DNA from: Deltaproteobacteria bacterium
Lineage (GTDB): Bacteria; CG2-30-53-67
Length of the DNA: 64,000 nucleotides
Assembly (NCBI GenBank): GCA_013151235.1
Contig: JAADIO010000032.1
Coordinates: 2,166-66,165 of the forward strand
Reading direction: 5' to 3'
In this document: positions 1 through 51,177 of the stretch, in pieces
Layout: each line of letters opens with the position of its first letter
How positions within the stretch are numbered: position 1 is the first letter of the stretch
The notes under the pieces: generated by a model
Seen by the model: only the letters and a program-made list of their open reading frames with translations
What the model was told of the DNA's origin: nothing
Database searches by the model: none
Translations under genes and position numbers: made by a program

Positions 1-13
1 AGGCCGGAAACAT

Positions 14-1342: not shown

Positions 1343-1420
1343 AATACGCTCGTATATAAGTTGTTGAAAACTTCAGCTCTCAGGTTTTTTGCCAAGGTTC
1401 CTGAAGCTGCTGTTTCCCTA

Positions 1421-4221: not shown

Positions 4222-4289
4222 TCCTGAATTGCTTCGACGTAATTTCTAAGAGTTGGAAATCTTTATCCGTGAAAGAAGTACCTGTGATC

Positions 4290-5330
4290 CTACCACGAAA
4301 GAAACGATTTTCGATACTCAAAGAAGCCTGACATGCTCAATCGATAAAAGCTTTTACGTGCTGATATGTCATTGCCCACACCGACGCGAGGGATAGAAAG
4401 TGGATGGTCCTTGCCCGGATTGTACAGTCCGTAATCCGTGGCAAACGCGCATTTGTAGCCGTAATGAGCCAGTAATTTCCTATGTTCTGGTGAGTAATCC
4501 TTTCCAAACTGGCCATTCGGGTAACAGAACGCCCTGATCTCATGCCCTAACTTTTTTTCAAGCCTTATTTTCGACCCGGCCAATTCTCCTTCAAGCAGTT
4601 CCTCCGGTGTGTTTGTGAGAATTCTGTGGGTAGCGGTATGGGAGCCGAATTCAATCAGTCCTTCTTTGTCCATCTTGAATACTTCAGGCCAGGTCAACAT
4701 CCCGAAATCATCTATGTAAGTGGATCGGTCGAAGCCAACCTGGGAGACAACCTGCTGCAAAAGAGCGGATCTTTCATTGCCGTGCTTTCTCTTCAGGTAT
4801 TCCACCTCCATGTGGTAAGCTTCATAATATTGTTTTTTCGAGAAAAGAAAGTTTGCCTGTGGGTTGGTAAGCCGGAGGTTTGCTTGCTGTTTTCCGGCTT
4901 CGAGAATGGTCAGCAATAGTTCGTCAACCCAGAAAAACCGGTCCGAGTTTATGTAATCAACAGTAAGGAAAATAACGGTTGGAATCCTGTATCTTTTCAG
5001 GATCGGGTAGGCGACAGTCATGTTATTCCTGAAACCGTCATCCAGGGTGATTAAAACGGAATGATCAGGGAGGGGGTTGTCTGTTGCCGCCGCCGACAAG
5101 ACTTCATTTAATGAAACGGGGTTATAGTATTTCGCGAGCCAGGAGATCTGTTGCTCGAAGATGCGCGCAGGTAACAATGTCCATGCAGAAGGAGGATTTT
5201 TGCTTTGTGTAACTCCATGATACGTCACTACCAGAAGGCGTTTCCGGTATCTGTGCCGCAGAAATCGGCTGACGCCTGCAAAAAGCAGGATGTTACAGAA
5301 GGCAATCTTTGTGAACTCCTTAAATGTCAT
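4290..5330 (-). CDS. Polysaccharide deacetylase (NodB homology domain), PEP-CTERM-locus type
   Basis: N-terminal TM segment, then LVVTYHGV and LITLDDGFRNN (NodB motif 1) and HTATHRIL. I moved the start to MTFKEF (5330), which gives an ATGA overlap with the stop of the upstream 862-aa ORF. The track ORF extends to 5393. Confidence 0.75.
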   Translation of the reverse strand: MTFKEFTKIAFCNILLFAGVSRFLRHRYRKRLLVVTYHGVTQSKNPPSAWTLLPARIFEQQISWLAKYYNPVSLNEVLSAAATDNPLPDHSVLITLDDGFRNNMTVAYPILKRYRIPTVIFLTVDYINSDRFFWVDELLLTILEAGKQQANLRLTNPQANFLFSKKQYYEAYHMEVEYLKRKHGNERSALLQQVVSQVGFDRSTYIDDFGMLTWPEVFKMDKEGLIEFGSHTATHRILTNTPEELLEGELAGSKIRLEKKLGHEIRAFCYPNGQFGKDYSPEHRKLLAHYGYKCAFATDYGLYNPGKDHPLSIPRVGVGNDISARKSFYRLSMSGFFEYRKSFLSW

Positions 5331-7915
5331 TTGTTTTTTATACGGGCTTTCAGCCAGTTCCACTCTCTTTTTAGATTTGTCTTTGCACAACATCCGGCAA
5401 CATCAGACAGGATTCTACGAAAAAGTCCGGGCATTGTGTAACGGAATGGCGATGAACTGTATTGTCCGCTGCCGGGGCTTTTCCTTTCGTGAACGGGATG
5501 GACGGATTCGCCGGGGTCCGGGATCCATCCGTTCTGCAGGGCCAGGACCATGGGGCGTGTCAGGAATCGTGTTTCACGGCTCTGTAATTCTTTGAAACTT
5601 TCCGTCAGGAAGAACCGGCAACGTTCAATGAATCGCTTGCGATTCTCGGATGGGGCGTATCGAGCTGCAAGATAAAAGACGACGCTTTTCCGAAGGTCCT
5701 GGGCGGCCCACGTTTCGTTAGGGTATTCAAGGACTCCGGGCCTTGTCAAAGTCGGGTATTCATTCTCTGCCATCCAGCCTGCATAGTGCAGCAGGGTGTC
5801 TTTTGCATAAACGTAATCATTGTCGAACTCGTTTAATTCACTCTTTTTCTCAAGATACTTCCCGGTTGCAACCAGAAAAACCGTATAGGACCACCAGCGT
5901 TCGACATTATTCAAGTCGCGGGAGGCGATGTTGTCATTCGGGTGCACCGTGCCCTGGATCAGGCGGGTTGCGATATCGAGATATTTCCTGTCCGACGAAA
6001 GCTCAAAGGCATCTAGAGCCGCGGAAAGGCAATTTCCGGTGCCTCGGTCAAGAGGAAAACACGGCCATATTCCCGCTTCTCGTTTCCCGCGCCACCAGGA
6101 ATGCAGATATTTCTTTGCTCTCAGAAAAGATGCGAGAATGGTTTGCGGCCCTTTCAAGGAGAGGTAACACCAGTCGGCGAGCCTGAGTACCTCCTCCCGG
6201 AAACGAGGATTCCCGGTCAGAAGATGATGAACCATAAGTCCTGTTGTATAACAGTGTTGCGCGGCAGGCCCGCCTCCAACGAATGCGGGGTTTTTGTGTT
6301 TCAAGTGTTCCCTGGATGAACTTCGATGAGTACTGAGTCCGGCATCCAGGTAATGGTCGGTGTGCCAGAAAAGGCCGTGACAGTATTCCTCACGGTCTTC
6401 ATCCGTATGGTTGATATCAATGTCAATGACATGACGGGCCAGATCCGAGGCCAGCCCCGCCCATCGGAAGTCGCCGGTGCGGAAATACTCGCGATAAAAA
6501 GAGGCGACGGCATCGTATTGGTTATTGTAATGTGAGACAAAAGGCCTCTTCCCCCTGTGGTAGACCGCCTCGTGGTCGGCGTACAGTTCCCCGAAATTAC
6601 GCCATCCGTATTCGTCGACCATTTCCCGCTTGGCCATAAAATTGTTCGGTCCTTCAAGAGCTGCGGCCGTAAATTCCAGGTATTGGGGGTCGGCTGGCTC
6701 GCCGCCGGTAATGTCGTTGGACAGCCCGGACTGCCCGATCGTTTCCTGTGAAAATGTTATCTCCGGTGGCCCAAGTCCCCAACCCGCCTGATCCAGAGTA
6801 GTTGCAAAATCAAGATGAAGAAGATGTGTTTTTTGCTCCCCCCCCTGTAATTCATGCAAGTCTGGAAACTTTTCCGGGAAGAATGATATATTTATCATAT
6901 CGTCATGGAATCCCATTGCTTTGGGGAATTCCTGCCAGAATTGCGAAAGGACGACAGAAAGTCCGTTGGTGCTTGGTCCCGCCCAGAGAATCGGCCCGGC
7001 CCTCTTCCCGGTCATTATGACATGATCATCCTGCAATACCTGATATCCTCGTATCGTCATAGGGACATTGCCGTTTCGGTTCCTATGATTGGGGCTGCAC
7101 CAGTTTTCACCGCCGCTCGACTCCTGGTAAATGATTAGTGGCCCGCCTTTCTCGAAAGTCCGCCATGGTTCCCCGATAGAGGTTTTGTAATAATAATCGG
7201 CGCCGAAGTCTTTATTCAGGGACAGAGACACAACGAGTTCCTTGAACAAGAATGAAGAAGGATCACCAAGATCCCAGATTCCGTCCGGATGTTTTGCCGC
7301 TCGGGAATTGTGGAGTGTAAACTCGATGCATGTTTTTGCAGTCCCTGTATAAAAATGCAGTCTTGCCTGGAATAAGAGTTTTTTGTCCCGGCCGAAATGG
7401 CCCTTGATATTGAGCGTTAAGCGGACCGGACCACGGGCTTCAATGGCTGTTTTTTCAATGACGGCAGGCAACTTCAGGTTATCCTGATCTTTTAGCCAGA
7501 GGTCACTGCCGGTATCACCGAGGATATCCTGTCCCTCTACCCGTACCCTCCGGAAAGGGAGCAGCCTGGAAGAATCCAGGACAAAAAAAGCGGCGCCGGT
7601 ATCGATCTCGATCATATTGCCGGCTGAATTGCAGTATATTACCTCCTGCGCATGTTTCAAGGTCTTCACGGGTTCAAGACGCAGATGGACCTGTTCCTCG
7701 GGTGCCATGTCGACGAGGAAATCACAGCGCAGCCATTTAACGCTTCTGTCCGGCCAGTGGGCCAATGGTGTTGTCTGAACCGGGATTGACCGGCCCTTCC
7801 CGTTGAGAACAAAATCGCTGTCCTGCTTCACGATGCCTTGCGGGCAGGGAATGCCGATCGTGGCCGGGTATCTTGTTCGTTGGAGATGGGATGGATTTGT
7901 GATTTTTATTTGCAT
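5327..7915 (-). CDS. Large hypothetical protein, possibly a glycan-active enzyme (PcRGLX/YetA-like three-domain architecture)
   Basis: 862-aa ORF with no signal peptide or TM segment. The N-terminus (IGIPCPQG...FVLNGKGRSIPVQTTPLAHWPDRSVKWLRCDFLV) recalls the RIFT-barrel N-domain of exo-rhamnogalacturonan-lyase-like proteins. The C-terminal half looks helical and toroid-like. The CDS is solid; the function is uncertain. Confidence 0.5.
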   Translation of the reverse strand: MQIKITNPSHLQRTRYPATIGIPCPQGIVKQDSDFVLNGKGRSIPVQTTPLAHWPDRSVKWLRCDFLVDMAPEEQVHLRLEPVKTLKHAQEVIYCNSAGNMIEIDTGAAFFVLDSSRLLPFRRVRVEGQDILGDTGSDLWLKDQDNLKLPAVIEKTAIEARGPVRLTLNIKGHFGRDKKLLFQARLHFYTGTAKTCIEFTLHNSRAAKHPDGIWDLGDPSSFLFKELVVSLSLNKDFGADYYYKTSIGEPWRTFEKGGPLIIYQESSGGENWCSPNHRNRNGNVPMTIRGYQVLQDDHVIMTGKRAGPILWAGPSTNGLSVVLSQFWQEFPKAMGFHDDMINISFFPEKFPDLHELQGGEQKTHLLHLDFATTLDQAGWGLGPPEITFSQETIGQSGLSNDITGGEPADPQYLEFTAAALEGPNNFMAKREMVDEYGWRNFGELYADHEAVYHRGKRPFVSHYNNQYDAVASFYREYFRTGDFRWAGLASDLARHVIDIDINHTDEDREEYCHGLFWHTDHYLDAGLSTHRSSSREHLKHKNPAFVGGGPAAQHCYTTGLMVHHLLTGNPRFREEVLRLADWCYLSLKGPQTILASFLRAKKYLHSWWRGKREAGIWPCFPLDRGTGNCLSAALDAFELSSDRKYLDIATRLIQGTVHPNDNIASRDLNNVERWWSYTVFLVATGKYLEKKSELNEFDNDYVYAKDTLLHYAGWMAENEYPTLTRPGVLEYPNETWAAQDLRKSVVFYLAARYAPSENRKRFIERCRFFLTESFKELQSRETRFLTRPMVLALQNGWIPDPGESVHPVHERKSPGSGQYSSSPFRYTMPGLFRRILSDVAGCCAKTNLKREWNWLKARIKNK

Positions 7916-12540: not shown

Positions 12541-14985
12541 TCAGTCCGACTGCAACCTGTGGAACTTGGTCCATGTGACCGGCTGTTTGTTCAATATTCC
12601 CTTATAGATTCCGTATAATGCCGCTCCATTCATCAGGCAGAAATAATAAGGAAACAGGAATGTTTGTAATGGGTGGTCTCTCCGCTTTACCACGAAACCG
12701 GTGAAGGCGAATCCGTAGAAGAGAAACTGGACGGCCAAGATCATGCGGTAACCCGGCTGTCCGTAGGACAGGGCGAGGTGAATATTTGCAAGAAACAATG
12801 AAATCAGGAAAAAAGGCGCAAACCAGCGCAGCAGTTTATGTGACAGATAACAAAACATCTCCCGTGTGACGAGGGATGAGGGGATCCCCTGCCTCTGCTT
12901 GAGCGACTGGATGGCTCCCGCGATGACCCTTGCTTGCCGGAAGAATTCCTCCCGGGGAGAAAGAAAATTCCGTTCTTCTGCGATCGCTTCTTCTTCGTAT
13001 ATCAGGCGGTGACCGCTCGAGACGATCGTCATAGAAATTACAAAGTCGTCCAGAATGGTATCCGGCGGTGGTGGTACGAAAAGTTCTTTCCGGATGGCGT
13101 ACAGGCCGCCGTCGGCCCCGATCATGGATCCAAGATCCGTCTCTTTCCGCTGGATCCAGCGTTCATAGATGTAATAGATTGATCCGGATTTCCCCAAAGT
13201 TGTTTCCTCGCCGCGGAGGATTACGTCCGCGCTGACGGCCCCTACGGAAGGGTCGGCGAAGTTTTGTACCAGTTTACGTACGGCATCCCGTCGGCACATG
13301 GTGTTGGCATCGGAAAAAATGATGATCTCACTGTCAATCTCCGGGACCGTCTTGTTGATCACCGCTGTTTTCCCTTCTCGGGTCTGATATTGCATTAGGG
13401 TTACGCGATCCTCATCCTCCCGGAACTTTTGTATCCTTTCTCGGGTGCGGTCCGTAGACCCGTCGGAAGCAATGATAAACTTGATTTTGTCTGTTGGATA
13501 GTCCAGTTCAAGGCAGTTCCTGATTTTCTCTTCGATGACTTCCTCTTCGTTATATGCACAAATCAACAAAGAGACCGTTGGAGTGATCTCCTGTTTCTTG
13601 ATCTTCCTTCGATAAAAGAGAGTGACGATTCCCAAGATAAGCGGATAACCGACATACACGTATCCGAGCAGGAGAAGTGAGAACCGGAAAACAAGGTGTG
13701 TGAAAAACCGGAGCGGAATCCGGCCTAAGTGGAGAGCGAGACAGATTGCATAGATCGACAGCACTGCCATGAACAGGTGGATGATACAGCGGTTCCGGGT
13801 GAGGAGGTTTTCGGATACTTTGTCTTCTTGCCCTCTCGCGTGGTTCCATGTCGAGATGATATTTCCCTGCAAGCTTTTTGCGATACCCAGCAGGGAGGCA
13901 ATGTTCATCAGAATGAAGTAGTAGGCATAGGGAACAAGAGGCGCCCGGATATGTTTTTCGGAAAGGAGCATTCCCAGATAAGCCATACCGGTGAATGCTA
14001 CAATAAAGAGAAATGTGAATTGATAGACGGATCGTCCGGAAGCGGAGAGCAGGAAGCAGGAAACAAAGAATAAAAACAGAAATAGAGGTGAAAACCATCG
14101 CAGCAGTTTGTGAGAAATAACCTCAAGCGCGAATATTCCCGTTTTGAAAGGGTTCATAACGCCTTTCAGTCTCATCAGGCCGCTGAAGCTCCTGTTGACG
14201 ATCCGGATTTTACGTCTGAACTCTTTTTCATAGGTCCCGGCCGCCTCTTCATAGGAAATTGCGGCGGGTTCATAGATGCCGCGGTATCCTTTCAAAATGA
14301 TCTGGAGGGGGTTCACGAAATCATTGATGTCTGTTTCTAATAACGGTTCGTAAAGATCTTTCCGGATTGCATAGATGGCGCCATCGCCGCCGACGATGGA
14401 ATGCAGGTCGGACTCCATTTTTTTAATGAGGGTTTCATGATTCCAGTAGAGGTTTTCGCTTTTCCCGGCCATGGTTCTTCCCGGATCGGTGTAACGGGCT
14501 TGTCCCACGACGTATCCCACGGTGGGATCATGAAAATTTCGGACTAATTTTTTAATTGCATTCTTCCGGTAGATTGCATTGGCATCGGAAAAGATGATCA
14601 GTTCACCCTTTGCGAGCGGTATCGCCAGGTTGAGGCCGGATGTTTTGCCCATACGTTTTTCTTGGCGAACCAGCCTCACCCCTCGGTCCTCATATTCGCG
14701 AACGATCGAGTCTGTCTGATCCGTAGATGCATCGGAGACGACCAGTATATCCAGCTTGCCTTTTGGATAGTCCAGCGACAAACAGTTTTCAAGCTTCGAT
14801 CGGATAACATCCTCTTCATTGTAGCAGGAGATCAGCAAACTGACGGACGCTCCGGTCTTCTCCCGGAGGATTTCTTTTTTCGGAATTACAAATCGCAGTA
14901 CCACGAGGAGAAGCGGGTATCCGATGTAAGTATAGAGAAGTATCAGAAGTGACAGGAATGCAGTGACCTCAAGAAAAGGGATCAT
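12541..14985 (-). CDS. Tandem-duplicated membrane glycosyltransferase family 2 (two complete GT2 modules in one polypeptide)
   Basis: 814 aa. Module 1 reads VSLLISCYNEEDVI..LDYP..VSDASTD..IIFSDANAIY..SHKLLRWFSP. Module 2 reads VSLLICAYNEEEVI..LDYP..ASDGSTD..IIFSDANTMC..SHKLLRWFAP. Each module is flanked by TM helices. Confidence 0.8.
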   Translation of the reverse strand: MIPFLEVTAFLSLLILLYTYIGYPLLLVVLRFVIPKKEILREKTGASVSLLISCYNEEDVIRSKLENCLSLDYPKGKLDILVVSDASTDQTDSIVREYEDRGVRLVRQEKRMGKTSGLNLAIPLAKGELIIFSDANAIYRKNAIKKLVRNFHDPTVGYVVGQARYTDPGRTMAGKSENLYWNHETLIKKMESDLHSIVGGDGAIYAIRKDLYEPLLETDINDFVNPLQIILKGYRGIYEPAAISYEEAAGTYEKEFRRKIRIVNRSFSGLMRLKGVMNPFKTGIFALEVISHKLLRWFSPLFLFLFFVSCFLLSASGRSVYQFTFLFIVAFTGMAYLGMLLSEKHIRAPLVPYAYYFILMNIASLLGIAKSLQGNIISTWNHARGQEDKVSENLLTRNRCIIHLFMAVLSIYAICLALHLGRIPLRFFTHLVFRFSLLLLGYVYVGYPLILGIVTLFYRRKIKKQEITPTVSLLICAYNEEEVIEEKIRNCLELDYPTDKIKFIIASDGSTDRTRERIQKFREDEDRVTLMQYQTREGKTAVINKTVPEIDSEIIIFSDANTMCRRDAVRKLVQNFADPSVGAVSADVILRGEETTLGKSGSIYYIYERWIQRKETDLGSMIGADGGLYAIRKELFVPPPPDTILDDFVISMTIVSSGHRLIYEEEAIAEERNFLSPREEFFRQARVIAGAIQSLKQRQGIPSSLVTREMFCYLSHKLLRWFAPFFLISLFLANIHLALSYGQPGYRMILAVQFLFYGFAFTGFVVKRRDHPLQTFLFPYYFCLMNGAALYGIYKGILNKQPVTWTKFHRLQSD

Positions 14986-16133
14986 AGGCTTCCCTGATAA
15001 AGTTGCAAATAACGTGACAGCATTTTCTGGAAGGAAAAGTCTTTGGACGCCCTTTCGGCGGCATTGGCCCCCATGGTTTTTTGTTTCTCTGGGGAACGAA
15101 GCAGTTCCAGGACCTTGGTTGCCATGGTCTGTTCCTCTCCGGTGGGTACAAGGTATCCGGTTTTCCCATCGATTACAACCTCGGGGTTTCCTCCTACTGC
15201 TGTTACAACAGAAGGGACTCCGGCGGCCATGGATTCCAGGAGTGTGATCGAAATTCCTTCCGTAAAGGATGTGAGAAGAAACACGTCAAACAAGGGATAG
15301 ATTTCCGGCAGGTCGTATCTCAGTCCCAAGAAAACCACCCGGTCTTCGACGCCGAGATGTTTCGAAAGATCTTTCAGCTCTTTCTCCTTAGGGCCTTTCC
15401 CCGCGATCAGCAGATAGGTTTGCGGCATTTGAGCCAGAACACGCTTGAAAACGTGAAGCAACATGGGGATATTTTTGATCTCGTCGAGACGGGCGGCCGT
15501 GCCCATAACCCGGCTTGTGTTATCCAACTGCAGCAACCGGCGTTTTGTGGATGGAACGATATTTGTCTTGGAGTCGTCAAAGTGCACGCCGTTAAAGATA
15601 ACTTCTATCTTTTGTGCGGGGAAGTTATCATACATCACCATGGCTTTTTTCGTGCTTTCAGAGATGGAAACGATATGGTCTGTCATGCCGGCAAGCAGCG
15701 GATTAAAGAGGTATCTCTTTATTCTTCGCCGATCAGGATATAATCGACCATGCTCTGTAAATATGAGTCTGATTTTCTTTCCCATTAATGAGGAGAGAAC
15801 CGCATAGAAATAGGGGGTATATTGATGGGCATGTACCACATCGATTTTTTCTCGGACAATGATCCTGTTTAAGCGTTTAACGAGGCCCCAGTCGATGCCC
15901 CTTTTTCTTTTAAGGTAATAGACCCGGATACCCTGTGTGACCAATTTGTCACCCAGGGGGCCGATCATGTCGAGGCAGCAGACAGTGGGGGTAATGTTTT
16001 TTTGCGGAAGCCCCTGAATTATGTCATAGACCAGTTTTTCTGCTCCTCCCACACCCATAGAGAGCACCACAAACAAAACGCGAAGGAGCCTTCTGTTGTG
16101 ACTGTCTATACTTATTTTTTTGGAATATGGCAT
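14982..16133 (-). CDS. Glycosyltransferase family 4
   Basis: 383 aa. GVGGAEK N-terminal motif and EGISITLLESMAAGVPSVVTAVGGNPEVV. 4-nt overlap with the downstream tandem GT2. Confidence 0.85.
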   Translation of the reverse strand: MPYSKKISIDSHNRRLLRVLFVVLSMGVGGAEKLVYDIIQGLPQKNITPTVCCLDMIGPLGDKLVTQGIRVYYLKRKRGIDWGLVKRLNRIIVREKIDVVHAHQYTPYFYAVLSSLMGKKIRLIFTEHGRLYPDRRRIKRYLFNPLLAGMTDHIVSISESTKKAMVMYDNFPAQKIEVIFNGVHFDDSKTNIVPSTKRRLLQLDNTSRVMGTAARLDEIKNIPMLLHVFKRVLAQMPQTYLLIAGKGPKEKELKDLSKHLGVEDRVVFLGLRYDLPEIYPLFDVFLLTSFTEGISITLLESMAAGVPSVVTAVGGNPEVVIDGKTGYLVPTGEEQTMATKVLELLRSPEKQKTMGANAAERASKDFSFQKMLSRYLQLYQGSL

Positions 16134-16135
16134 TT

Positions 16136-17272
16136 TTAGAAGATGGATTCTTTGGCTCGCCGGTAATAATATTTCAGGGTTTCCAGCATGGAGGGATAAT
16201 AGACCCGCATGTTGCAGTTGTTGCAGATCGCGATCTTTTTCTTTTGCTGCAGCGACACGAATTGCCTGTGTCTTTCATTTCCCCATATTTTGTCCAGGTC
16301 TGTTTTTAGAAGATTTCCAATGACGTAGGAGCGGTAAAACGGACAGGGAACGACATCTCCGTTCGGATTGAGAGTGACAAAGGTGGTTGCAATATGACAG
16401 TGTTTATAATCATACAGGCCCGACAGAAATGTCTGTTCGCTGGTGACGTCGAGCGCTCTGAAATTTACATAGATTTTCTGATGATGTTTCTTTGTCTGCT
16501 TGATGAGTTCTTTGAACTCGACCAGTTGCTCACGGTTCAGCAGGTGTGATGCATCCTCGGAAGATACGAAGTAGGGCTCGGGCTGAACTCCGTTGATCTT
16601 GGATAAATTGATGTTCTCCTGGCTAAATTCCCCTAAAAACCGGGGGTAAACTGCATCGATATGGTATTGTTCAAGAAACCGGATAATTTGGGGAAAATCC
16701 CGGTAATTCATGTTGGAAAGCGTGTTGCATATAATGATCTTGGGGTAGGTGCGGGAGCCTCGGATATCAATGAAGTTCTCGAGTGCATCCGTTATTTTCT
16801 GAAAGGTTCCGTCGATGCCCCGGATCCCGTCATGCTTTGTGCCGACATCGTCTATAGAGAGATAGACGGTATGTAACCCGTACTCTATCAAGGTGCGGAT
16901 CGTTTCTTTGTCGCACAGATTCCCGTTTGTCGGGAAATAGGTCCGGATCCCGTTTTTTGCACAATATTGAATCATATCAAAAACGGCATCCTTTCTTAAA
17001 AGGGCATCGCCGCCGAAGATTTCAAATGACCGGATGCCGTGATCTTTCAGTCTTGCAAGAATCGTCAGCCACTCGTCTCGACCTAATTCTTGCGGTTGTT
17101 CGCTGTTCCTCTTCCATATATTGCAGGTCTTGCACCGGCTTGTGCACCGATAGGTTAAAAACCCCATAGAGTCCGCTGCGCTTAAGGATAAATGGCGATA
17201 TTCATAGCGGATCAATTCCGGGATCTCCCGGAGGCCGGGAACGATATTTCGGATGATTTTAGAGGCATTCAT
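16136..17272 (-). CDS. Radical SAM protein with C-terminal SPASM/twitch-like Cys cluster
   Basis: CTSRCKTCNIW (CxxxCxxC) near the N-terminus. C-terminal HC..x..GDVVPC...CNNC cysteines. I chose the start at MNASKII (17272) to avoid overlap with the upstream DUF362 gene. Confidence 0.75.
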   Translation of the reverse strand: MNASKIIRNIVPGLREIPELIRYEYRHLSLSAADSMGFLTYRCTSRCKTCNIWKRNSEQPQELGRDEWLTILARLKDHGIRSFEIFGGDALLRKDAVFDMIQYCAKNGIRTYFPTNGNLCDKETIRTLIEYGLHTVYLSIDDVGTKHDGIRGIDGTFQKITDALENFIDIRGSRTYPKIIICNTLSNMNYRDFPQIIRFLEQYHIDAVYPRFLGEFSQENINLSKINGVQPEPYFVSSEDASHLLNREQLVEFKELIKQTKKHHQKIYVNFRALDVTSEQTFLSGLYDYKHCHIATTFVTLNPNGDVVPCPFYRSYVIGNLLKTDLDKIWGNERHRQFVSLQQKKKIAICNNCNMRVYYPSMLETLKYYYRRAKESIF

Positions 17273-17282
17273 TGATTTGCCC

Positions 17283-18296
17283 TTACAGGGAAAGATGGAT
17301 GCTGCGCGGGTTGGTTGTCCCCAATCCACGATCGGCGGCGGTCTGGATGAAGACCGGGGCAGGAGACACCGGTTCCAGGCCGTGTTCTTTGCGTTTCTTA
17401 TCGATGATTTTCCATCCGGTATAATCTATCGCTACCGGATCGTCTGAAATGATCAGTTGATTCAAGGGATCTACATATTTCTGGTCTCTTCCGTTGATCC
17501 ACTTGTATTCGACGAAGATGGCGTCCAGCACGATCAGGCGGGTCTTGTCCCGGATTTGCGGTTGGGCGTTCAGGTGGGGCAAAAACTCCATGATATCCTT
17601 GTGGTGATGCGACGGGTTCCCGATGGAGCCGTAATGATTCTTCATGCTGAGAGATACGCCGGAGTAACCTTCCAGGGCCTTCAGGACAGGCACATTGATC
17701 AGATAATCACACCGGTATTTGTTCTCACTGAGAGGAATGCCGCCGGTTAACAATTTCGCCATACGGTTAAAAAGGAAACGGTGATAACCACCGAGATCGT
17801 CGACCGTCCCGACCTTGATCCCCGGCCCGAGATTTTTCTCGAAGCCGGCATAACGGAATGCGTGATCGGTCTTGTCATAGATGACGATATTGTCCGGTCG
17901 GACCCCACGCTGGATCAGTCCGTCCGTGACAGCCTTGACAACCTTCGATTTGGTATAGATGCCTTGGATCTGGCAGTTAATCTTGATCGCAACCCTCTTG
18001 GCCGGATCCGGAATGATTTTTGACCAAGCTTTTAACAAGTTTCTTTCACCGGTAAAAGACTTGATCCCTTCATCCAGCATCTGTTTGATCACTTGTTCAT
18101 CCAGATTCTTGTTATCGCGTTCGTCCGTAAGGTCTGATGCCCTGTCGTGATGGACGGAGACGAGCATACTCTTTCTTCCACTGTGCGCATGACTGTTTTT
18201 CAGAGAGGGCAACCACTTCAGGAAAAAACCGGCACCCAGAACAGATAAAACTTTTACCAGGAAGTGTCGCCGGTTTATATTACGTAAAAACGACAT
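17283..18296 (-). CDS. DUF362-like protein with twin-arginine (Tat) signal
   Basis: 337 aa. N-terminal NRRHFLVKVLSVLGAGFF looks like a Tat signal. The body (VAIKINCQ..., DPVAIDYTGWKII) resembles DUF362 proteins, a family call made from memory. Confidence 0.5.
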   Translation of the reverse strand: MSFLRNINRRHFLVKVLSVLGAGFFLKWLPSLKNSHAHSGRKSMLVSVHHDRASDLTDERDNKNLDEQVIKQMLDEGIKSFTGERNLLKAWSKIIPDPAKRVAIKINCQIQGIYTKSKVVKAVTDGLIQRGVRPDNIVIYDKTDHAFRYAGFEKNLGPGIKVGTVDDLGGYHRFLFNRMAKLLTGGIPLSENKYRCDYLINVPVLKALEGYSGVSLSMKNHYGSIGNPSHHHKDIMEFLPHLNAQPQIRDKTRLIVLDAIFVEYKWINGRDQKYVDPLNQLIISDDPVAIDYTGWKIIDKKRKEHGLEPVSPAPVFIQTAADRGLGTTNPRSIHLSL

Positions 18297-18314
18297 GCGT
18301 TACCCCGTGCTCGA

Positions 18315-19187
18315 TTACGTGTGGAAAACATTCTGCATGATGGAATATACCTTTTTATCCCTTCCGGTTTTGTCTTTCAGATAGTCATCGAGAATGCCTG
18401 CATCGATGTTTTGCCAGACCCGTTGAAGTACTTCCGGAGTGATCATTCGATTCAGGTACAGTGCTCCTTTCTCCGTTAATGCGCAACTCCGGGCTCGATC
18501 GTTTTCGATATCTTCTATGGCCCGGATCATCATTTCGATGCCGAGTTTTACGACCTTTACATAAAGTGTTTCCGGGTTGTCAATTCCGGATATCTCCGGC
18601 CTTCCCTGGTACAGTATGTCCCCGTCATCGATTCCCTTGTCCACGTAATGTACGGTGGCGCCGATATATTCCGGTTCTCCGTTAAAGAGTGCCCAAAGAG
18701 TCGTACACGTACCCCTGTATTTTTGTGCGAGTCCGCCATGTAGATTCAGCACTCCCTTGGGGGGGATGGAGAGGACCTTCTCCTGCAGCACGGACGTACC
18801 ACAGACGGCAATTACGTCGGGCTTGATCTCCTGGATCGCATGGATATAACCCGGTTCATTAATTGTTTTTCCCCCTTCCGTATATACCACCGTTTGGCCT
18901 GCATGAGGCAGGATATGGCGTCCTTCTTCACCGAAATATGTTTTATCAACGATTGTGGTCTTTCGGAAGTGTTCTTTGACAATCCGGTTATCCGATATTT
19001 TTTTGAAGAGAAGCAGTGGGTGTGCCATAAACCGGAGTGCCTTGAGTAACCGGAGAGGCAGATTGCTGCCGCCGTGCTGTTCTTCGACAAAAACGGCTGC
19101 GACATTCAGCCTTCGGGTCAACCGGTTTGCAAAGTAAATATCGGATGGATCCGAGCTGACAAGAATTACGACCTTTGGTTTGTTCAT
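18315..19187 (-). CDS. Formyltransferase-family protein (Fmt/ArnA N-domain-like)
   Basis: 290 aa. VLNLHGGLAQKYRG (the N-x-H...R-G formyltransferase catalytic motif) and HYVDKGIDDGDIL. Confidence 0.7.
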   Translation of the reverse strand: MNKPKVVILVSSDPSDIYFANRLTRRLNVAAVFVEEQHGGSNLPLRLLKALRFMAHPLLLFKKISDNRIVKEHFRKTTIVDKTYFGEEGRHILPHAGQTVVYTEGGKTINEPGYIHAIQEIKPDVIAVCGTSVLQEKVLSIPPKGVLNLHGGLAQKYRGTCTTLWALFNGEPEYIGATVHYVDKGIDDGDILYQGRPEISGIDNPETLYVKVVKLGIEMMIRAIEDIENDRARSCALTEKGALYLNRMITPEVLQRVWQNIDAGILDDYLKDKTGRDKKVYSIMQNVFHT

Positions 19188-19202
19188 ACGCGCTTTGAAA
19201 AT

Positions 19203-20354
19203 CTATGCTGATTTACGGAGAATACGTTTGATTGCGGGAATAAACCTGTATTCAACGCCATACAACAATTTTGAATATAATGTGACATTAAAAAGATGAA
19301 CGTTGATATGCCTTCTGCAGTTCCGTGTCCACTTTTCCTTGTAGTGGTCAGAACTTCCCCCCAGGTCATATTCGGTTATCTCCCCCTTTTCGAAGAGTTG
19401 TTGAACGATATGCGCGTCCAGAAAAACACCCGGTGACATCCGGCCGTAATCTTTTTTGTGCGATGCCCGCATGCCGTAAATTTTATCATTATATTTCAGG
19501 TGATATTCAAACGCAACCGGATCGCCTTTGACCTTTAGTAACCAGACCGAGAGCCATCCCTTTTCGGCGGCTACGCGCGAAAGTTGATCGAAGAAACGGC
19601 GGTTCGCCGGGGAGCTTAGCGAGTCTCCAATTTCTTCCGTCCAGCTGTTTCTTGCAATCTCATACAATTCCGGTGCGATGCTTTGAAATGTTGCATAATC
19701 ATTAATTTCTTGTACGGAAAAATCCCTTTCCCGCTTGAAGCGGTTGCGAATATTCCGGAGGGTTTTACGTGCTTTGGATGATCGGCTTTTGTAATAACTC
19801 TCCCAGTCTGAGTTGATTGTGATGTAGGGCGATATCAAGGCGGGTTGTGTGCCGTAAAGAAAATTCTTGTCTTTCAGGATTTTTCGGAGAAAGTCACAGT
19901 TTCGGGAATTTTCGGGGATATTCTTGAATTCGACAAGATCCCAGCAGTCCTTCTCGGCCATCAGGTGATCGAGAATCGCACGTAACGCCTTCTCTCTCTT
20001 TTCCGGATGTAAGAGAAAGTCATTGTGCAGGGAGTTTCCATTCTCGACAAAGGTGAACATCCTGATCGGGAATCCTCGATTACGTTGTCGCCGGATCATC
20101 ATCGGTGCGATCCCGATCAGCTCTTCATTCTCACGGATCAGGAAAATGCGCAGGAGATTCTGCTGCCCGAAGGTTTGCCACCAGCAGCGATACCATTCGG
20201 GCGTGTAAAATACAGTGCTTTCCTTTTTCTGCAGGATCAGCAGGTTGTTCCATTCGGCCTCCAGCGGATGGATCCGATCGAGGTTGTCGATTGAGTGAAC
20301 GGTAATCACCTTTCCCGCCCGTGAGATCTCCGGCGAACCGGAAGGGTTGTCCAA
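19203..20354 (-). CDS. CelD/BcsL-like GNAT acyltransferase (FemAB-related fold)
   Basis: RIHPLEAEWNNLL...VFYTPEWYRCWWQTFG...IGIAPMMI resembles the CelD-type acetyltransferase family. The track ORF reaches 20534 and would overlap the upstream gene by 178 nt. A TTG at 20354, 2 nt after the upstream stop, is a plausible start, but the start remains uncertain. Confidence 0.6.
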   Translation of the reverse strand: MDNPSGSPEISRAGKVITVHSIDNLDRIHPLEAEWNNLLILQKKESTVFYTPEWYRCWWQTFGQQNLLRIFLIRENEELIGIAPMMIRRQRNRGFPIRMFTFVENGNSLHNDFLLHPEKREKALRAILDHLMAEKDCWDLVEFKNIPENSRNCDFLRKILKDKNFLYGTQPALISPYITINSDWESYYKSRSSKARKTLRNIRNRFKRERDFSVQEINDYATFQSIAPELYEIARNSWTEEIGDSLSSPANRRFFDQLSRVAAEKGWLSVWLLKVKGDPVAFEYHLKYNDKIYGMRASHKKDYGRMSPGVFLDAHIVQQLFEKGEITEYDLGGSSDHYKEKWTRNCRRHINVHLFNVTLYSKLLYGVEYRFIPAIKRILRKSA

Positions 20355-20356
20355 AC

Positions 20357-21397
20357 TTATGCGATAATGTTCTTCCGTACCATCGGCCCCATAATCTTGC
20401 TCAGTCCGACCGGAAGTCTTTTCCAGACTGCGACCATCCGTGCCATGGCGGGACTGATCCGGTTTCCGGCTTCCGTCATGCCCTGGTTTTTTGCCCAGCA
20501 GTCCCAATAGAGTTGTTTCGGTTCCGCCCCCCACTGTGCCTTGAACCGGTATGTCCCCCCGTTCGGGGTGGATCTGCCGAAGTCGAATTTTCGGAATCCA
20601 TGTTCACAGGCATACTCGAGGGTCTTCCAGTACAGGAGCATGTTCGGGGCGAAACGGTTGTAGCTTCTGAGGGATGAGGCCCACGGGATTTCAAGGCGAC
20701 CGCGAAATCCGATGAGAAAACCCGAGGCGACCGGGACCTCCCGTGCGTATACAACACAGATCACGGCCCGGTTCGGGAAGAGGTCCAGGATATTACGGAA
20801 CAGCTTCTTGCCGTGTACCGGAGAGCCGAGATCCCGCATGTTTACGGCAAAGACATGGTAGAAATCATCCAGCAGTTCCTTGCTTCCGAAGTGTGCTTCG
20901 AACCCCTCCTTCATTGGTTTTTTGATCTGGCTTCTGAGCTTGGATCTGAAGGAAGTCCAGAGTTCATCGGGGGATTCGGGAAGATCGAGGATCATGGAGA
21001 CCTTGCACTGATTCCGGGTGAGGCCGAGTTCATAAGATTCCGCATGGCGTAGCTCCAGCGCCATCCGATGCTTCCCGGCAAGTTCGATCGCCGCATCGAG
21101 CAGTTTTGTCCGGACATCGTTATTCTCTGCAACGATGCCTCCGTAGTTCACGAAGGGCATGGAAACCAGGAAACGACCGAAGATCAGGCTCTTGACGTAC
21201 ACCAAGGGAAGAACCCCGACGATCTGATCTTCTTTTTCGGCACATAGGTAACAGGTTTGATGAGGAAAGGTCCTTTCCATCAGTTTCTTCCAGGAGAAAA
21301 GATGATAGAGCGATGCCGAAGGAGTCTGAAGAACGAAATCGTCCCAGGCTGTTTTTTGCTCCGGGACTAGGTAGGATATTTGAATGCTTTGTTTCAC
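20357..21397 (-). CDS. FemAB-family protein, PEP-CTERM/exosortase-system associated
   Basis: 346 aa. AWDDFVLQTPSASLYHLFSWKKLMERTF...LPLVYVKSLIFGRFLVSMPFVNYGG is typical of the FemAB-like proteins found next to exosortases. Confidence 0.7.
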   Translation of the reverse strand: MKQSIQISYLVPEQKTAWDDFVLQTPSASLYHLFSWKKLMERTFPHQTCYLCAEKEDQIVGVLPLVYVKSLIFGRFLVSMPFVNYGGIVAENNDVRTKLLDAAIELAGKHRMALELRHAESYELGLTRNQCKVSMILDLPESPDELWTSFRSKLRSQIKKPMKEGFEAHFGSKELLDDFYHVFAVNMRDLGSPVHGKKLFRNILDLFPNRAVICVVYAREVPVASGFLIGFRGRLEIPWASSLRSYNRFAPNMLLYWKTLEYACEHGFRKFDFGRSTPNGGTYRFKAQWGAEPKQLYWDCWAKNQGMTEAGNRISPAMARMVAVWKRLPVGLSKIMGPMVRKNIIA

Positions 21398-21401: not shown

Positions 21402-22046
21402 TCAGGAGGAGGTCTTTGTGGACCATTCTAATAGATAAGGATAGAATTTCAGAAGGAAATTTTGCAGGGTCCTCCATTGTTGTTCCGGTCTTTTCTCTAT
21501 CGGCATGGAAATCCGTACAAGCGCACCGTTGGTTCGGTTGTTCTGCAACGCGCGGCGGATCAGGTCAAACCGCTGGAGATACTCGTTTGCAATCACCCGG
21601 TTGTCCGCCTGGTACCAGTAGGCGACCAGCCGTTTGTCGGTGCCGTTTTCGATTATCATCCGGTTGATGTGAATCTTCCGGTCTCCAACCGGAACGGCAA
21701 CGACCTCCCTGCGAACCGGGGTCCAACCGCTGCCGGGATAACAGTGTAGGGGGGAGTGGATCTGTGTGCCGTTCTGCTGGGTTCGGTAGTAGCCGATGTA
21801 GAGCCAGATCGTTTGACCGTCGAGGGTATGGTAGGCCCGGTTCAGAATTGCATCGGCGCCGAGTTTTTTTAGGACGGCCGGTTTTAGGGGGATCTCTTCG
21901 CTCTGCCATTTACCGATCCGGTCCGGGAAGGTTGAAAAATTCCGGACGAGCGGAACCGGGATGGGGTGAGAAAGGGACCGACTGTAGAAAAAGACCCCGA
22001 TCAGCAGGATGAAAATCACCGAGAAATAGAGGTTGGATTTTTTCAT
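21402..22046 (-). CDS. EpsI-family exosortase-associated protein
   Basis: 214 aa. N-terminal TM anchor, then the IHSPLHCYPGSGW motif typical of EpsI. ATGA overlap with the exosortase stop. Confidence 0.8.
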   Translation of the reverse strand: MKKSNLYFSVIFILLIGVFFYSRSLSHPIPVPLVRNFSTFPDRIGKWQSEEIPLKPAVLKKLGADAILNRAYHTLDGQTIWLYIGYYRTQQNGTQIHSPLHCYPGSGWTPVRREVVAVPVGDRKIHINRMIIENGTDKRLVAYWYQADNRVIANEYLQRFDLIRRALQNNRTNGALVRISMPIEKRPEQQWRTLQNFLLKFYPYLLEWSTKTSS

Positions 22047-22963
22047 GATGGTTTCACCTGCTCCGGGTGTGCCGGCCGCCGATGAAACGCCTGCAGGAGT
22101 TCATTCACCCCGAATATGAGAAGCGTAGCGGTCGTATAGACCACGATCCCGGAGGTTTCGTGGAGGAATCCCTGAGCCGTGTCGGGTCCTTTGTAAACGG
22201 CGAGAAGGGCCGTGACGACAAGGCGGAGAATGTTGCTGATCACGGCTATGGGGAAGATAGCGACAACCAGGAGAGCCCGGGGAAGGAAGCGTTGCTGGGC
22301 GATGTAGGTGAAGGCGATCCCGAAGGTGAGAAGTGAGGTCAGGGAGCGCAGTCCGCTGCAGGCATCGGCGACCTCCAGGGTGGTGTTCGGAAGATAAATG
22401 ATGTTTCCTTCATGGTGGACGGTAATGTGAAGAAGGTCAATAGTGAACACCGCCCATTTCGTAGCGAAGAGTTTCATGGGGGATGCGATGGCGTAATAGA
22501 GAATGTACGGCAAGGGGATCATCAGCAGGAGATAGAGGATCGGGAATACAATCGTCTTGCTCCCTTTCTTCCCCCACATGGTCAGGAGGATTCCAAGCAG
22601 AACAATGATGAAAGAAATCCGTGTGGTAAAAAGTTCATTCCCTGCGATGCCGATCAGGTAGGTTGTAAATCCGAACAGAACGACGAACAGCCCCGGGCCG
22701 TAAGGTTCCGGCTGAATTCGTGAGATTTTTTTTCTTTTACGCCAGACGAGAAATGCCGAGATGAGAGGAACAAAGATTCCGTAACCGTAGTTCGGGTCCT
22801 GATTCCAGTCCCGCCAGAGTTCCGGAAATACGGGCGCATATAGAACAAGCAAACCGAAGCCCAGAAGGCTGAGTTGCAACGGAAAGATTTTCCGGGAGGG
22901 CGATATCTTGTCTGTCTGTACGTGCTCTGTGGCCTTCATACAGCTCCGCCCTCTCGGTTCCAT
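22043..22963 (-). CDS. Exosortase (EpsH/Xrt family transpeptidase)
   Basis: Polytopic membrane protein with the catalytic-Cys motif DACSGLRSLTSLL. It is followed by EpsI, and a PEP-CTERM substrate lies in the window. The start could instead be the internal MKATEH. Confidence 0.85.
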   Translation of the reverse strand: MEPRGRSCMKATEHVQTDKISPSRKIFPLQLSLLGFGLLVLYAPVFPELWRDWNQDPNYGYGIFVPLISAFLVWRKRKKISRIQPEPYGPGLFVVLFGFTTYLIGIAGNELFTTRISFIIVLLGILLTMWGKKGSKTIVFPILYLLLMIPLPYILYYAIASPMKLFATKWAVFTIDLLHITVHHEGNIIYLPNTTLEVADACSGLRSLTSLLTFGIAFTYIAQQRFLPRALLVVAIFPIAVISNILRLVVTALLAVYKGPDTAQGFLHETSGIVVYTTATLLIFGVNELLQAFHRRPAHPEQVKPS

Positions 22964-26768: not shown

Positions 26769-26784
26769 TTCCCGGGGACAGGCA

Positions 26785-27984: not shown

Positions 27985-27987
27985 ACG

Positions 27988-29577: not shown

Positions 29578-29581
29578 CCCC

Positions 29582-30214
29582 ATGGAACGACTCCCCGGGG
29601 TGAAACGATTTTTGAAGACCCACCAGAACTGGGTGCAGATGACCCTTCCAGGGCTGGTGATTGCGGGGCTGGTCCTGGTTCTGATCGTTCCGAAGGTCAG
29701 GCAGTGGTATGCCCTGCAGCAGGAGATTGGAAAGGTGGGCAGGCAAATGGAACGAGTCTCGATGGATTTGGCTTCTCTCCCGCCGGAGCGGCTTCAGCGC
29801 CTTGCCCGGGCCGATGCGGACGATCGGGAACGGCTGCCCGGCCGGGGTCGGTTCTACACCTACCTGGGGCACCTCCGGGAACTGGGCCGCTCCCTGGGGA
29901 TTGATGAGATCACTTATTTTCGGGGTGCAGTGGAACGGGTCGACATGGATGAGATTCTGGCTCGTTCGACCTTCAATGAGTTGCCCATCTCTCTGGATCC
30001 GGACTCGAATGTCTTGTATGGCATTCCCGTGAAGATCCAGTTTCAGGCCCCCTACCGGACCCTCTATCGGTTTCTGAGGTCGCTCCGGGGAGGAAAACGG
30101 TTGACCGATATCCGGGAAGTGCGGGTCAAAAAAAAATCCGGATCTCTTGCGGTGGAGATGAAGATGGAACTCTATTATCTTGTGAAAAATTCGGGAAGAA
30201 AAGATGCTGCGTAA
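29582..30214 (+). CDS. PilO/MshJ-like assembly protein
   Basis: 210 aa. One N-terminal TM segment, a coiled-coil segment (QWYALQQEIGKVGRQMERV) and a periplasmic domain. Called from position and topology only. AAGGAGAA Shine-Dalgarno upstream of the ATG at 29582. Confidence 0.4.
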   Translation: MERLPGVKRFLKTHQNWVQMTLPGLVIAGLVLVLIVPKVRQWYALQQEIGKVGRQMERVSMDLASLPPERLQRLARADADDRERLPGRGRFYTYLGHLRELGRSLGIDEITYFRGAVERVDMDEILARSTFNELPISLDPDSNVLYGIPVKIQFQAPYRTLYRFLRSLRGGKRLTDIREVRVKKKSGSLAVEMKMELYYLVKNSGRKDAA

Positions 30215-30677: not shown

Positions 30678-30696
30678 ACACAAAGGAGGAAATCTT

Positions 30697-47098: not shown

Positions 47099-47251
47099 GG
47101 CGAAGAGGGGGTAGTAAGTCCGTGTTGTTCAGGTCCCATTGACCTTGTGAGAGAGGGGGTTGTGATGGGTACATTCTGGGAAAATCTCAAAAATATGTTT
47201 GTGCGGACTGTTCCTCCGGGAGCAGCCGGGCAATCGCAGAAAGGAGCTGCC

Positions 47252-51175: not shown

Positions 51176-51177
51176 AG

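Follow-up and report, generated by a model that had tools for sequence, protein, structure and literature searches.

Gene organization of the locus

The analyzed window comprises 64,000 nucleotides of contig JAADIO010000032.1 from a deltaproteobacterium. The original prediction had singled out three consecutive genes in this window, and we recovered all three open reading frames, together with every motif quoted for them, tightly packed on the minus strand: a stand-alone formyltransferase-fold enzyme of 290 aa (18315..19187; Pfam Formyl_trans_N, E = 5e-21), a 337-aa DUF362 protein with a twin-arginine N-terminus (17283..18296; Pfam DUF362, E = 2.6e-18) and a radical SAM enzyme with a Twitch-type C-terminal domain (16136..17272; Radical_SAM PF04055, E = 3.4e-19; SPASM, E = 6.3e-13). 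The Pfam scores of all three proteins exceeded the curated cut-offs, and none of the three reached an NCBIfam equivalog cut-off. The radical SAM gene had been listed as 16136-17329 with a GTG start at 17329; we corrected its start to the ATG at 17272, which follows at 7 nt an AAGGG Shine-Dalgarno sequence lying just past the DUF362 stop, and the homologues are 374-382 aa long.

Upstream of the three genes lies a putative FemAB-like double-GNAT acyl/aminoacyl transferase (19203..20354, minus strand; Pfam Acetyltransf_6 PF13480, E = 2.2e-28). Its start is uncertain (TTG 20354 or GTG 20309), and the listed start, GTG 20534, overlaps the upstream gene. That upstream gene, directly adjoining the cassette, encodes a second FemAB-family protein, the XrtA/PEP-CTERM-associated TIGR03019 (20357..21397, minus strand; 339.7 bits against a cut-off of 260); it matches Pfam FemAB, whereas the cassette gene matches Acetyltransf_6 and not the FemAB or FemX models. 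Directly downstream of the radical SAM gene, after a 2-nt gap, is a GT4 glycosyltransferase (14982..16133, minus strand; GT4/stp2-like in Pfam and NCBIfam), which likely performs a glycosyl-transfer step coupled to the cassette. A NodB-type polysaccharide deacetylase (4290..5393, minus strand; Pfam Polysacc_deac_1), approximately 11 kb away from the cassette, is a candidate for exposing the sugar amine.

The genes for EpsI (21402-22046, minus strand; NCBIfam EpsI_fam, 149 against a cut-off of 42.8) and an exosortase (22043-22963, minus strand; NCBIfam 8TM_EpsH, 189 against 105.6) head the same gene string as the cassette. Together with the TIGR03019 protein and a PEP-CTERM protein within the window (33557-34150), they identify the host locus as an XrtA/PEP-CTERM exosortase system, with the XrtA-specific model falling slightly under its cut-off (191 against 208). 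The radical SAM family was absent from all 26 exosortase-anchored metagenome loci (each at least 9 kb), in agreement with the earlier view that the flagged genes lie outside the usual exosortase equipment. In addition, the literature found on DUF362, on exosortase with radical SAM and FemAB, and on Geobacter exosortase loci contained no description of this cassette.

Conservation and gene fusions of the cassette

The radical SAM family was followed through 43 loci, which span more than 8 phyla; enough flanking sequence for neighbor counts was available in 25 of them, and the cassette set comprised about 45 clusters at 50% identity. Of these 25 loci, 23 had Acetyltransf_6 beside the radical SAM gene and 22 had a formyltransferase or a GNAT acetyltransferase, both occurring together only in L036, where the formyltransferase match is weak and distant. 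GT4 was found near the radical SAM gene in 15/25 loci. DUF362 was present in 14 and missing in 11, and the gene order often parts it from the radical SAM gene (L015, L016). The trio proposed originally is thus not kept as a syntenic unit, and it omitted the obligatory partner, the upstream Acetyltransf_6 gene. The natural unit consists of Acetyltransf_6, an N-acyltransferase (formyltransferase or GNAT) and the radical SAM enzyme, a conserved and horizontally portable cassette that GT4 usually follows and of which DUF362 appears to be an optional periplasmic accessory.

Fusion proteins, all of them metagenome gene calls in which single cases could be frameshift artefacts, joined the same partners. 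Acetyltransf_6 is fused to the radical SAM domain in P0241, P0265, P0269, P0271, P0274 and P0242; the Acetyltransf_6-RadicalSAM-SPASM arrangement was seen in five independent clusters and RadicalSAM-GNAT in two, while one 1183-aa protein (Acetyltransf_6-GNAT-RadicalSAM-GNAT) unites all three activities in one polypeptide. In addition, Acetyltransf_6 is fused to GNAT in L021, RadicalSAM-SPASM-GT4 forms a single ORF in L012, and GT4 and Polysacc_deac_1 are fused beside the cassette in both orders (L016, L017, L023, L024).

Most of the loci are glycan loci, containing GT4, Wzy, a flippase, a deacetylase and initiating transferases, and the deacetylase gene stands directly ahead of Acetyltransf_6 in Geobacter and Citrifermentans loci. 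The GT4 adjacency and the radical SAM-GT4 fusion make the glycan role suggested at the outset plausible. One locus argues for a wider view: in L033 the radical SAM-Acetyltransf_6-formyltransferase cassette stands alone among unrelated genes, with neither a glycosyltransferase nor sugar-nucleotide genes, and its target therefore need not be an exopolysaccharide. FemAB-like GNAT-fold transferases also serve several small-molecule pathways (PMC12945691). Products other than a glycan, such as a small molecule, a lipid or a peptide, might accordingly be made or modified by the cassette, an N-capped aminoacyl conjugate being one example; co-regulation would then explain why it lies in EPS loci. Given the majority of glycan loci, the fusion to GT4 and the operon-tight spacing in the window, with only 2 nt to GT4, we consider a non-glycan product quite improbable.

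The radical SAM enzyme

The radical SAM protein carries the motifs CTSRCKTCNIW, HC..., GDVVPC and CNNC. The CX3CX2C residues C43, C47 and C50, which place it in the radical SAM superfamily, are invariant in 38 sequences, and an AF2 model of the barrel has a pLDDT of 93. Its auxiliary cysteines, described originally as a partial set, turned out to be exactly four and invariant: C292, C310, C350 and C353 (CX17C...CX2C). Instead of the seven or eight cysteines and two auxiliary clusters of the full SPASM motif, only CX12GX4C and CX2C are present, and the CX5CX3C...C portion is absent from the enzyme. The pattern corresponds to the Twitch type, with one auxiliary cluster and about four ligands as in BtrN, and we predict from these residues that the enzyme carries a single auxiliary cluster. 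The invariance of the CX3CX2C and auxiliary cysteines suggests that the enzyme is catalytically competent. The Pfam SPASM HMM still aligns with it end to end.

In the profile search, SkfB was the best match and the BtrN C-terminal domain was matched at E = 6.5e-10; the structural neighbors include the sugar modifiers BlsE, DesII and BtrN. For known Twitch and SPASM relatives (BtrN, BlsE, DesII and SkfB, and anSME, respectively), the substrates are sugars of aminoglycosides or nucleosides, or peptides. The window enzyme differs from them in sharing just 16-19% identity and reaching no equivalog model, and we know of no member of these types that operates with a FemAB-like partner. Pfam gave only Radical_SAM, SPASM and Fer4_12 for the enzyme and no B12-binding domain, so that C-methylation, one of the reactions first suggested, finds no support here. 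We also considered C104, which is nearly invariant, as the H-atom-donor cysteine for an epimerization and dropped it; the model puts it in a surface helix (90-106) before a strand, and it is probably structural.

That a RiPP role is unlikely, as stated in the original prediction, was supported by three observations. First, the gaps between the genes of the block measure 2-47 nt and every small ORF of at least 20 aa overlaps a large gene, leaving no space for an adjacent precursor-peptide gene. Second, only one helix (residues 3-28) precedes the CX3CX2C core in the model, so the enzyme lacks an RRE or PqqD-like domain. Third, the partners conserved beside the gene are enzymes and not small ORFs. 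Nor did the 1.3-kb stretch preceding the L033 cassette contain a credible or conserved small ORF that could encode a precursor peptide.

The DUF362 protein

The DUF362 protein begins with MSFLRNINRRHFLVKVL, and its twin-arginine signal covers approximately residues 1-37 (window ~18186-18296). The orthologues all have R9 and R10, and F12 is conserved in at least 90% of them, whereas the remainder of the signal varies; AxA sites or a lipobox cysteine come after this region, and RRxF is also present in a second DUF362 subgroup. The Tat signal proposed earlier thus stood at the level of the motif and drew no match from the Pfam TAT_signal HMM in 38 orthologues at E <= 1. Because this HMM is short and hmmscan filters apply, we treated the latter result as uninformative and relied on the motif invariance, from which the protein is predicted to be Tat-exported and periplasmic.

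Searches of the PDB with the DUF362 sequence and profile gave chance-level matches only, and there was no sequence-level match to DUF2088. The structural model matches the LarA racemase fold only, suggesting a relation visible at the level of the fold. LarA enzymes, nickel-pincer nucleotide lactate racemases, are cytoplasmic, and the hallmarks of their class are a cofactor-tethering lysine, a nickel-binding histidine and the maturation genes LarB/C/E; the window protein would share their fold and differs in its conserved export signal.

Tat export implies cytoplasmic folding or cofactor loading, and radical SAM maturases have precedents in anSME with sulfatases and QhpD with QhpC. It could therefore be proposed that the radical SAM enzyme modifies DUF362, or builds its cofactor, in the cytoplasm before export, and DUF362 proteins of the window's subfamily, in which two cysteines and two histidines are invariant, were found only beside the cassette in the loci examined. 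Such a maturase role is nevertheless highly improbable in our judgment: the 11 loci without any DUF362 keep the radical SAM gene, the two genes are often apart, the radical SAM fusions involve Acetyltransf_6, GNAT and GT4, and the conservation of C108 does not extend to the second DUF362 subgroup, where the motif reads IKPNFN.

The FemAB-like transferase and the predicted capping enzyme

Sequence and profile searches of the PDB with the Acetyltransf_6 protein gave chance-level matches and reached no solved structure. Among 21 orthologues, 15 matched the model of the acyl-CoA-dependent crotonyltransferase BspF, and one weakly matched the FemX model, against which the cassette protein gave 16.9 bits, the cut-off being 500. 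A candidate Fem-type aromatic-lysine dyad, Y338-K339, was kept as a lead and given up as a firm assignment, for Y338 is invariant, position 339 is lysine in 17/21 and leucine in 4/21, and the mapping to FemX K305 was made by pattern, not by alignment.

The formyltransferase contains LNLHGGLAQKYRG. In the PDB it best matched the formyltransferase domain of ArnA and Fmt, and the Asn-x-His...Asp triad lined up; none of 13 orthologues departs from the triad residues N148, H150 and D187, which suggests that the enzyme is catalytically competent. The Formyl_trans_N fold and this triad are common to the window enzyme, the ArnA domain, Fmt and the sugar N-formyltransferases. Unlike these, the window enzyme gave no match to Formyl_trans_C in Pfam, has a folate-loop variant, HGGL(A/S)QxYRG, and has a longer N-terminal half. 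It scored 63.6 against 201.5 for the Fmt equivalog, 78 against 777 for the ArnA equivalog, and far under every sugar-formyltransferase equivalog cut-off.

In sister lineages, the closest relative included, a GNAT acetyltransferase takes the slot of this gene, and at least three switches between the two occurred among sister lineages. Mapping by blastn against an 88%-identical relative (L008) revealed a clean local replacement of the formyltransferase by GNAT. Since the two are interchangeable, N-formylation is a variable cap and not part of the core chemistry, and the enzyme is predicted to be an N-formyl cap transferase.

The best characterized relatives of the enzyme, the ArnA domain and the sugar N-formyltransferases, and the glycosyltransferase-rich locus would also agree with a nucleotide-sugar route, in which the formyltransferase N-formylates an NDP-amino sugar in the manner of ArnA, WlaRD or VioF, the radical SAM enzyme epimerizes, dehydrates or oxidizes an NDP-sugar, and the FemAB-like neighbor is unrelated. 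In pathways of the WlaRD, VioF and WbkC type the partner is an NDP-sugar aminotransferase, and Pfam and NCBIfam scans found no aminotransferase among the scanned locus genes (14 to 24129), a result that speaks against classical NDP-amino-sugar formylation; nor is an aminotransferase a conserved cassette neighbor in related loci. The cassette contains no NDP-sugar 4,6-dehydratase either, its tightest partner and fusion partner is Acetyltransf_6, and it can occur without any sugar-nucleotide genes, as in L033. Together with the low equivalog scores, these findings render the nucleotide-sugar route unlikely.

Proposed pathway

We put at about even the chance that the cassette (a FemAB-like Acetyltransf_6, a capping N-acyltransferase and a Twitch radical SAM enzyme, usually with GT4) tailors an amino sugar of the exopolysaccharide. 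In the best reading, the decoration is an N-acyl group, probably a capped aminoacyl, on a hexosamine, combined with one radical step. From the observed gene associations we infer the chemistry of every step as follows. In the cytoplasm, GT4 would install the hexosamine of a lipid-linked repeat unit and the NodB-type deacetylase would remove its N-acetyl group. The FemAB-like enzyme would then acylate the freed amine, most likely by transferring an amino acid from its tRNA, and the formyltransferase would formylate the new alpha-amine from N10-formyl-tetrahydrofolate, a step at which relatives would acetylate. Deacetylase and GNAT occur together in L009, L013, L015 and L027; because it would be pointless to strip an acetyl group from an amine and then put one back, the cap target is more likely a new amine. 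The radical SAM enzyme would take an H atom from the same pendant group or from the sugar, resulting in oxidation, epimerization or decarboxylation, as in BtrN, anSME or BlsE. In loci with the LarA-fold DUF362 protein, sent out by Tat, a further step on the exported polymer may follow in the periplasm. Several observations count against the scheme: the BspF matches of 15/21 Acetyltransf_6 orthologues, the lysine missing from the dyad in 4/21, the failure of the Acetyltransf_6 profile to reach a solved structure, the L033 cassette without a glycosyltransferase, and the roughly 11 kb between deacetylase and cassette in the window.

In a bolder version, which we think very unlikely, tRNA-dependent FemAB-like ligation would equip the EPS hexosamine with a short, N-capped side chain of aminoacyl or peptidyl nature, and the Twitch enzyme, in some lineages fused to the ligase, would modify this side chain. 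DUF362 would in this version be the first exported LarA-fold enzyme, receiving its cofactor in the cytoplasm, crossing the membrane by Tat and acting on the polymer in the periplasm. If true, radical chemistry of the RiPP style would here take place on a non-ribosomal, glycan-attached peptide, and DUF362 might unmask or epimerize the side chain to yield an anchoring point for exosortase-sorted proteins.

Little is known of EPS chemistry in sediment and biofilm bacteria such as Geobacter, Nitrospirota and their relatives, and the same holds for exosortase acceptor chemistry. The cassette is a compact, recurrent enzyme set, supported by fusions, for which neither a curated family model nor a characterized member exists. 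Tailoring of the EPS amino sugar predicts an N-formyl- or N-acetyl-capped substituent that differs between sister strains, and because Geobacter sulfurreducens carries the same block, this prediction is genetically testable. In addition, the orphan family DUF362 gains a modeled LarA-like fold, a predicted periplasmic location via Tat and a pathway context.

Comparison with known systems

In mycothiol biosynthesis, the GT4 enzyme MshA transfers GlcNAc, MshB deacetylates it, MshC ligates cysteine and MshD adds an N-acetyl cap, the product being a small thiol. The steps suggested for the cassette come in a like order, and the parallel is one of logic only: the mycothiol route involves no radical SAM enzyme and, unlike the pathway proposed here, does not end in a polymer. 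The window GT4 showed sub-threshold matches to BshA and MshA.

In Caulobacter crescentus, the FemX-like tandem-GNAT protein HfsK is genetically coupled to EPS, and its proposed role is acylation of the amines freed by the deacetylase HfsH (PMC5362036). This holdfast pair, likened here by description, links a FemX-like tandem-GNAT protein and a NodB-type deacetylase to EPS as in the cassette; unlike the cassette enzyme, HfsK is regulated by c-di-GMP and is accompanied by no radical SAM enzyme, capping transferase or DUF362. The aminoacyl-tRNA-dependent peptidoglycan transferases FemX, FemA and FemB belong to the same fold family as the cassette Acetyltransf_6, whose acceptor is presumably a glycan and not lipid II, and the tandem Acetyltransf_6 paralogues present in 8 of the 25 loci recall the stepwise addition by FemXAB.

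Gene organization of the cassette in the window

The three consecutive minus-strand genes described in the original prediction were found, with the motifs quoted for them, at 16136-19187. They encode a formyltransferase (18315-19187; Pfam Formyl_trans_N), a DUF362 protein (17283-18296; Pfam DUF362) and a radical SAM enzyme (listed at 16136-17329; Pfam Radical_SAM and SPASM), all on the minus strand and all scoring above the curated cut-offs. No NCBIfam equivalog was attained by any of the three; the top match, NirJ1, scored 96 bits where 650 are required. The true start of the radical SAM gene is the ATG at 17272, which lies directly after the DUF362 stop and has an AAGGG ribosome-binding site 7 nt upstream; its homologues are 374-382 aa long. 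Upstream lies a FemAB-like Acetyltransf_6 gene (19203-20354, minus strand), the second FemAB-like gene of the string. Its listed ORF (19203-20534) begins at a GTG at 20534 and runs 178 nt into the upstream FemAB gene; both the sequence and the lengths of homologues favour TTG 20354 or GTG 20309 instead.

All of these genes are closely packed, with 2-47 nt between neighbours, in a single string that runs from exosortase through EpsI, a TIGR03019 FemAB, Acetyltransf_6, the formyltransferase, DUF362 and the radical SAM gene to a GT4 glycosyltransferase, and then through more glycosyltransferases, an AsnB-type amidotransferase, an acetyltransferase, a PcRGLX-like protein, a NodB-type deacetylase and a carbamoyltransferase to Wzy. 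GC content falls to 0.44-0.48 in parts of this exopolysaccharide (EPS) locus (within 1-6000 and 14000-20000), the cassette among them, and is 0.53-0.60 in the rest of the window, a pattern compatible with horizontal exchange of glycan genes.

Several other genes of the window were also noted. An 814-aa protein (12541-14985, minus strand) carries a tandem pair of complete GT2 domains, each PgaC/IcaA-like, together with hydrophobic segments, and has an 805-aa counterpart in the Geobacter sulfurreducens locus. The 862-aa protein at 5327-7915 (minus strand) is only weakly PcRGLX-like (rhamnogalacturonan-lyase-type) in its N-terminal domains and is strongly conserved (685-810 bits) beside the deacetylase in Geobacter, Citrifermentans and Geomonas loci. 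A NodU-like carbamoyltransferase (1421-3238, minus strand) suggests O-carbamoylation of the polymer, and the 328-aa protein that follows it (3235-4221, minus strand) had no match in Pfam or NCBIfam. Divergent from the exosortase locus is a type II secretion/MSHA-pilus-like set (25098-33248, plus strand), encoding a GspE/PilB-like ATPase whose N-terminus is of the c-di-GMP-binding MshE type, GspF, a PilM-like protein, an MshL-like secretin and a TPR protein; it is followed by a PEP-CTERM protein (33557-34150, plus strand) and a PilZ-domain protein (35835-36542, plus strand). A PAS/GAF histidine kinase and a sigma-54-dependent response regulator (41680-45574, plus strand) may be PrsK/PrsR-type regulators, as is typical for XrtA systems. 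The corrinoid methyltransferase-type cluster at 46067-53154 (plus strand), with two URO-D/MtaA-like proteins, an MtrH-like methyltransferase and a RACo-type reductive activator, is unrelated to the EPS locus.

The natural unit revealed by synteny and fusions

The radical SAM homologues form a coherent unnamed family found in Nitrospirota, Geobacterales and other Desulfobacterota. Scanning species-representative genomes extended its range to Gammaproteobacteria, Brocadia, Zixibacteria, Ignavibacteriales, Cytophagia, Planctomycetales and Omnitrophota, and the relatives collected number 411. We mapped 43 loci by local HMM and phmmer searches, counted on the 25 with at least 2.5 kb on either side of the radical SAM gene, and scored a partner when it lay within 4 kb of that gene. 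Acetyltransf_6 was present in 23/25 loci, a formyltransferase in 12, a GNAT acetyltransferase in 11 and one or the other of these two in 22, while GT4 was found in 15 and DUF362 in 14. The formyltransferase and GNAT occurred together only in L036, where the formyltransferase match is weak and distant.

Protein fusions confirm this grouping. Acetyltransf_6-RadicalSAM-SPASM fusions were found in five independent 50%-identity clusters and RadicalSAM-GNAT fusions in two; one protein of 1183 aa combines Acetyltransf_6-GNAT-RadicalSAM-GNAT, and single loci encode Acetyltransf_6-GNAT (L021) and RadicalSAM-SPASM-GT4 (L012). DUF362 was not a partner in any cassette fusion found. Thus, synteny and fusions revealed that the trio is not the natural grouping; it is one gene too narrow and leaves out the upstream Acetyltransf_6.

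The formyltransferase, a swappable enzyme with a proposed capping role

In the closest relative, locus L008, whose radical SAM protein is 88% identical to that of the window, the order is exosortase-EpsI-FemAB-Acetyltransf_6-GNAT-DUF362-radical SAM-GT4. The two DNAs are collinear on both flanks (69% and 82% identity), and similarity is lost only at window positions 18030-19326, that is, in the formyltransferase gene and the DUF362 signal region. In the radical SAM tree, sister lineages differ in their formyltransferase/GNAT state in at least three cases (window versus L008, L016 versus L015, and L010/L011 versus L012/L013). Citrifermentans bremense is of the formyltransferase type, and a Geomonas relative is of the GNAT type. 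Formylation and acetylation appear to be evolutionary alternatives at the same step.

The formyltransferase orthologues, variously labelled Fmt or PurN in public records, belong together in one subfamily of stand-alone enzymes, about 285-315 aa long. Their triad Asn148-His150-Asp187 is invariant and their folate loop has the variant motif HGGL(A/S)QxYRG; the window enzyme should therefore be a working formyltransferase.

DUF362 is an optional, predicted exported partner

In 38 DUF362 orthologues the twin arginine is invariant and the following phenylalanine at least 90% conserved, the remainder of the N-terminus being variable; a second, more divergent subgroup from other cassettes likewise has RRxF. 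The motif is followed by a hydrophobic stretch, after which comes either an AxA-type site, as in the window copy (AxA-like, SHA|HS), or a lipobox cysteine. Several orthologues (P0211, P0213, P0215, P0216 and P0228) have lipobox-ended signals such as LLQGC and LYSCG and would be Tat-exported lipoproteins. The Pfam Tat HMM gave no match, which we took as uninformative. The DUF362 domain would lie outside the cytoplasm whether this segment is cleaved as a Tat signal or stays in the membrane as an N-in anchor.

All orthologues of this DUF362 subfamily with context examined lie in the cassette, which itself lacks DUF362 in 11/25 loci. This asymmetry speaks against DUF362 maturation as the purpose of the radical SAM enzyme, and is compatible with DUF362 adding a further step in the periplasm.

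A portable module recruited into exosortase loci

Of 80 loci obtained by scanning metagenomes with exosortase as the anchor, 26 were at least 9 kb long, and the radical SAM family was present in 0/26 of the latter. The cassette is therefore not general exosortase equipment, which bears out the view that the trio genes lie outside the usual exosortase-locus repertoire. In L033 the three-gene cassette stands by itself among unrelated genes, indicating a portable module. Its recruitment into exosortase/EPS loci is mainly a feature of Desulfobacterota and Nitrospirota; Geobacter sulfurreducens, which has the block at 2.138-2.159 Mb of CP074693.1, and Citrifermentans bremense are examples. In one hydrothermal-vent Desulfobacterota locus (L003) the cassette is accompanied by a sulfatase gene and by another, distinct radical SAM/SPASM gene (4438-5820 and 14617-15810), which may be a sulfatase/anSME pair in the same EPS locus.

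The original observation is correct and non-trivial, and part of its interpretation holds. What it describes is an uncharacterised cassette, supported by fusions, of the probable glycan-tailoring type and assembled from known superfamilies; it has no curated family model, and no description of it was found in the literature searched. Proof of the capped-aminoacyl chemistry, or of a LarA-fold enzyme that is exported and bears a cofactor, would make it more interesting.

Proposed chemistry of the cassette

Besides the CX3CX2C triad, exactly four cysteines are invariant in the radical SAM family (C292, C310, C350 and C353). Their spacing, CX17C...CX2C, is read as a Twitch arrangement with one auxiliary cluster and not as a complete SPASM motif. 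A single helix precedes the core, and the enzyme therefore has no RiPP-recognition element, in keeping with the earlier judgement that a RiPP role is unlikely. Pfam detected no B12 domain, which removes support for the suggested C-methylation.

The gene associations were observed directly, and from them we infer the chemistry. Because several loci have fusions of GT4 with NodB-type deacetylase domains next to the cassette, and because the deacetylase lies directly ahead of Acetyltransf_6 in Geobacter-type loci, the sequences suggest that GT4 transfers a hexosamine whose N-acetyl group the deacetylase then removes. The FemAB-like enzyme would next acylate the exposed sugar amine; Caulobacter HfsK and HfsH provide an experimental precedent for this deacetylase/FemAB-like acylation logic (PMC5362036). 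Both aminoacyl-tRNA and acyl-CoA are candidate donors: among 21 Acetyltransf_6 orthologues, 15 match the acyl-CoA-dependent BspF model, and only 17 have the candidate Fem-type lysine. Deacetylase and GNAT occur together in several loci; the capping enzyme would more plausibly act on a new amine, that of an amino acid presumably delivered by the FemAB-like enzyme, in an order of steps like that of mycothiol synthesis. Because it is fused to Acetyltransf_6, GNAT and GT4 in other lineages, the radical SAM enzyme should work on the intermediate shared with these partners, and, by analogy with its neighbours, the radical step would most likely be oxidation, epimerisation or decarboxylation.
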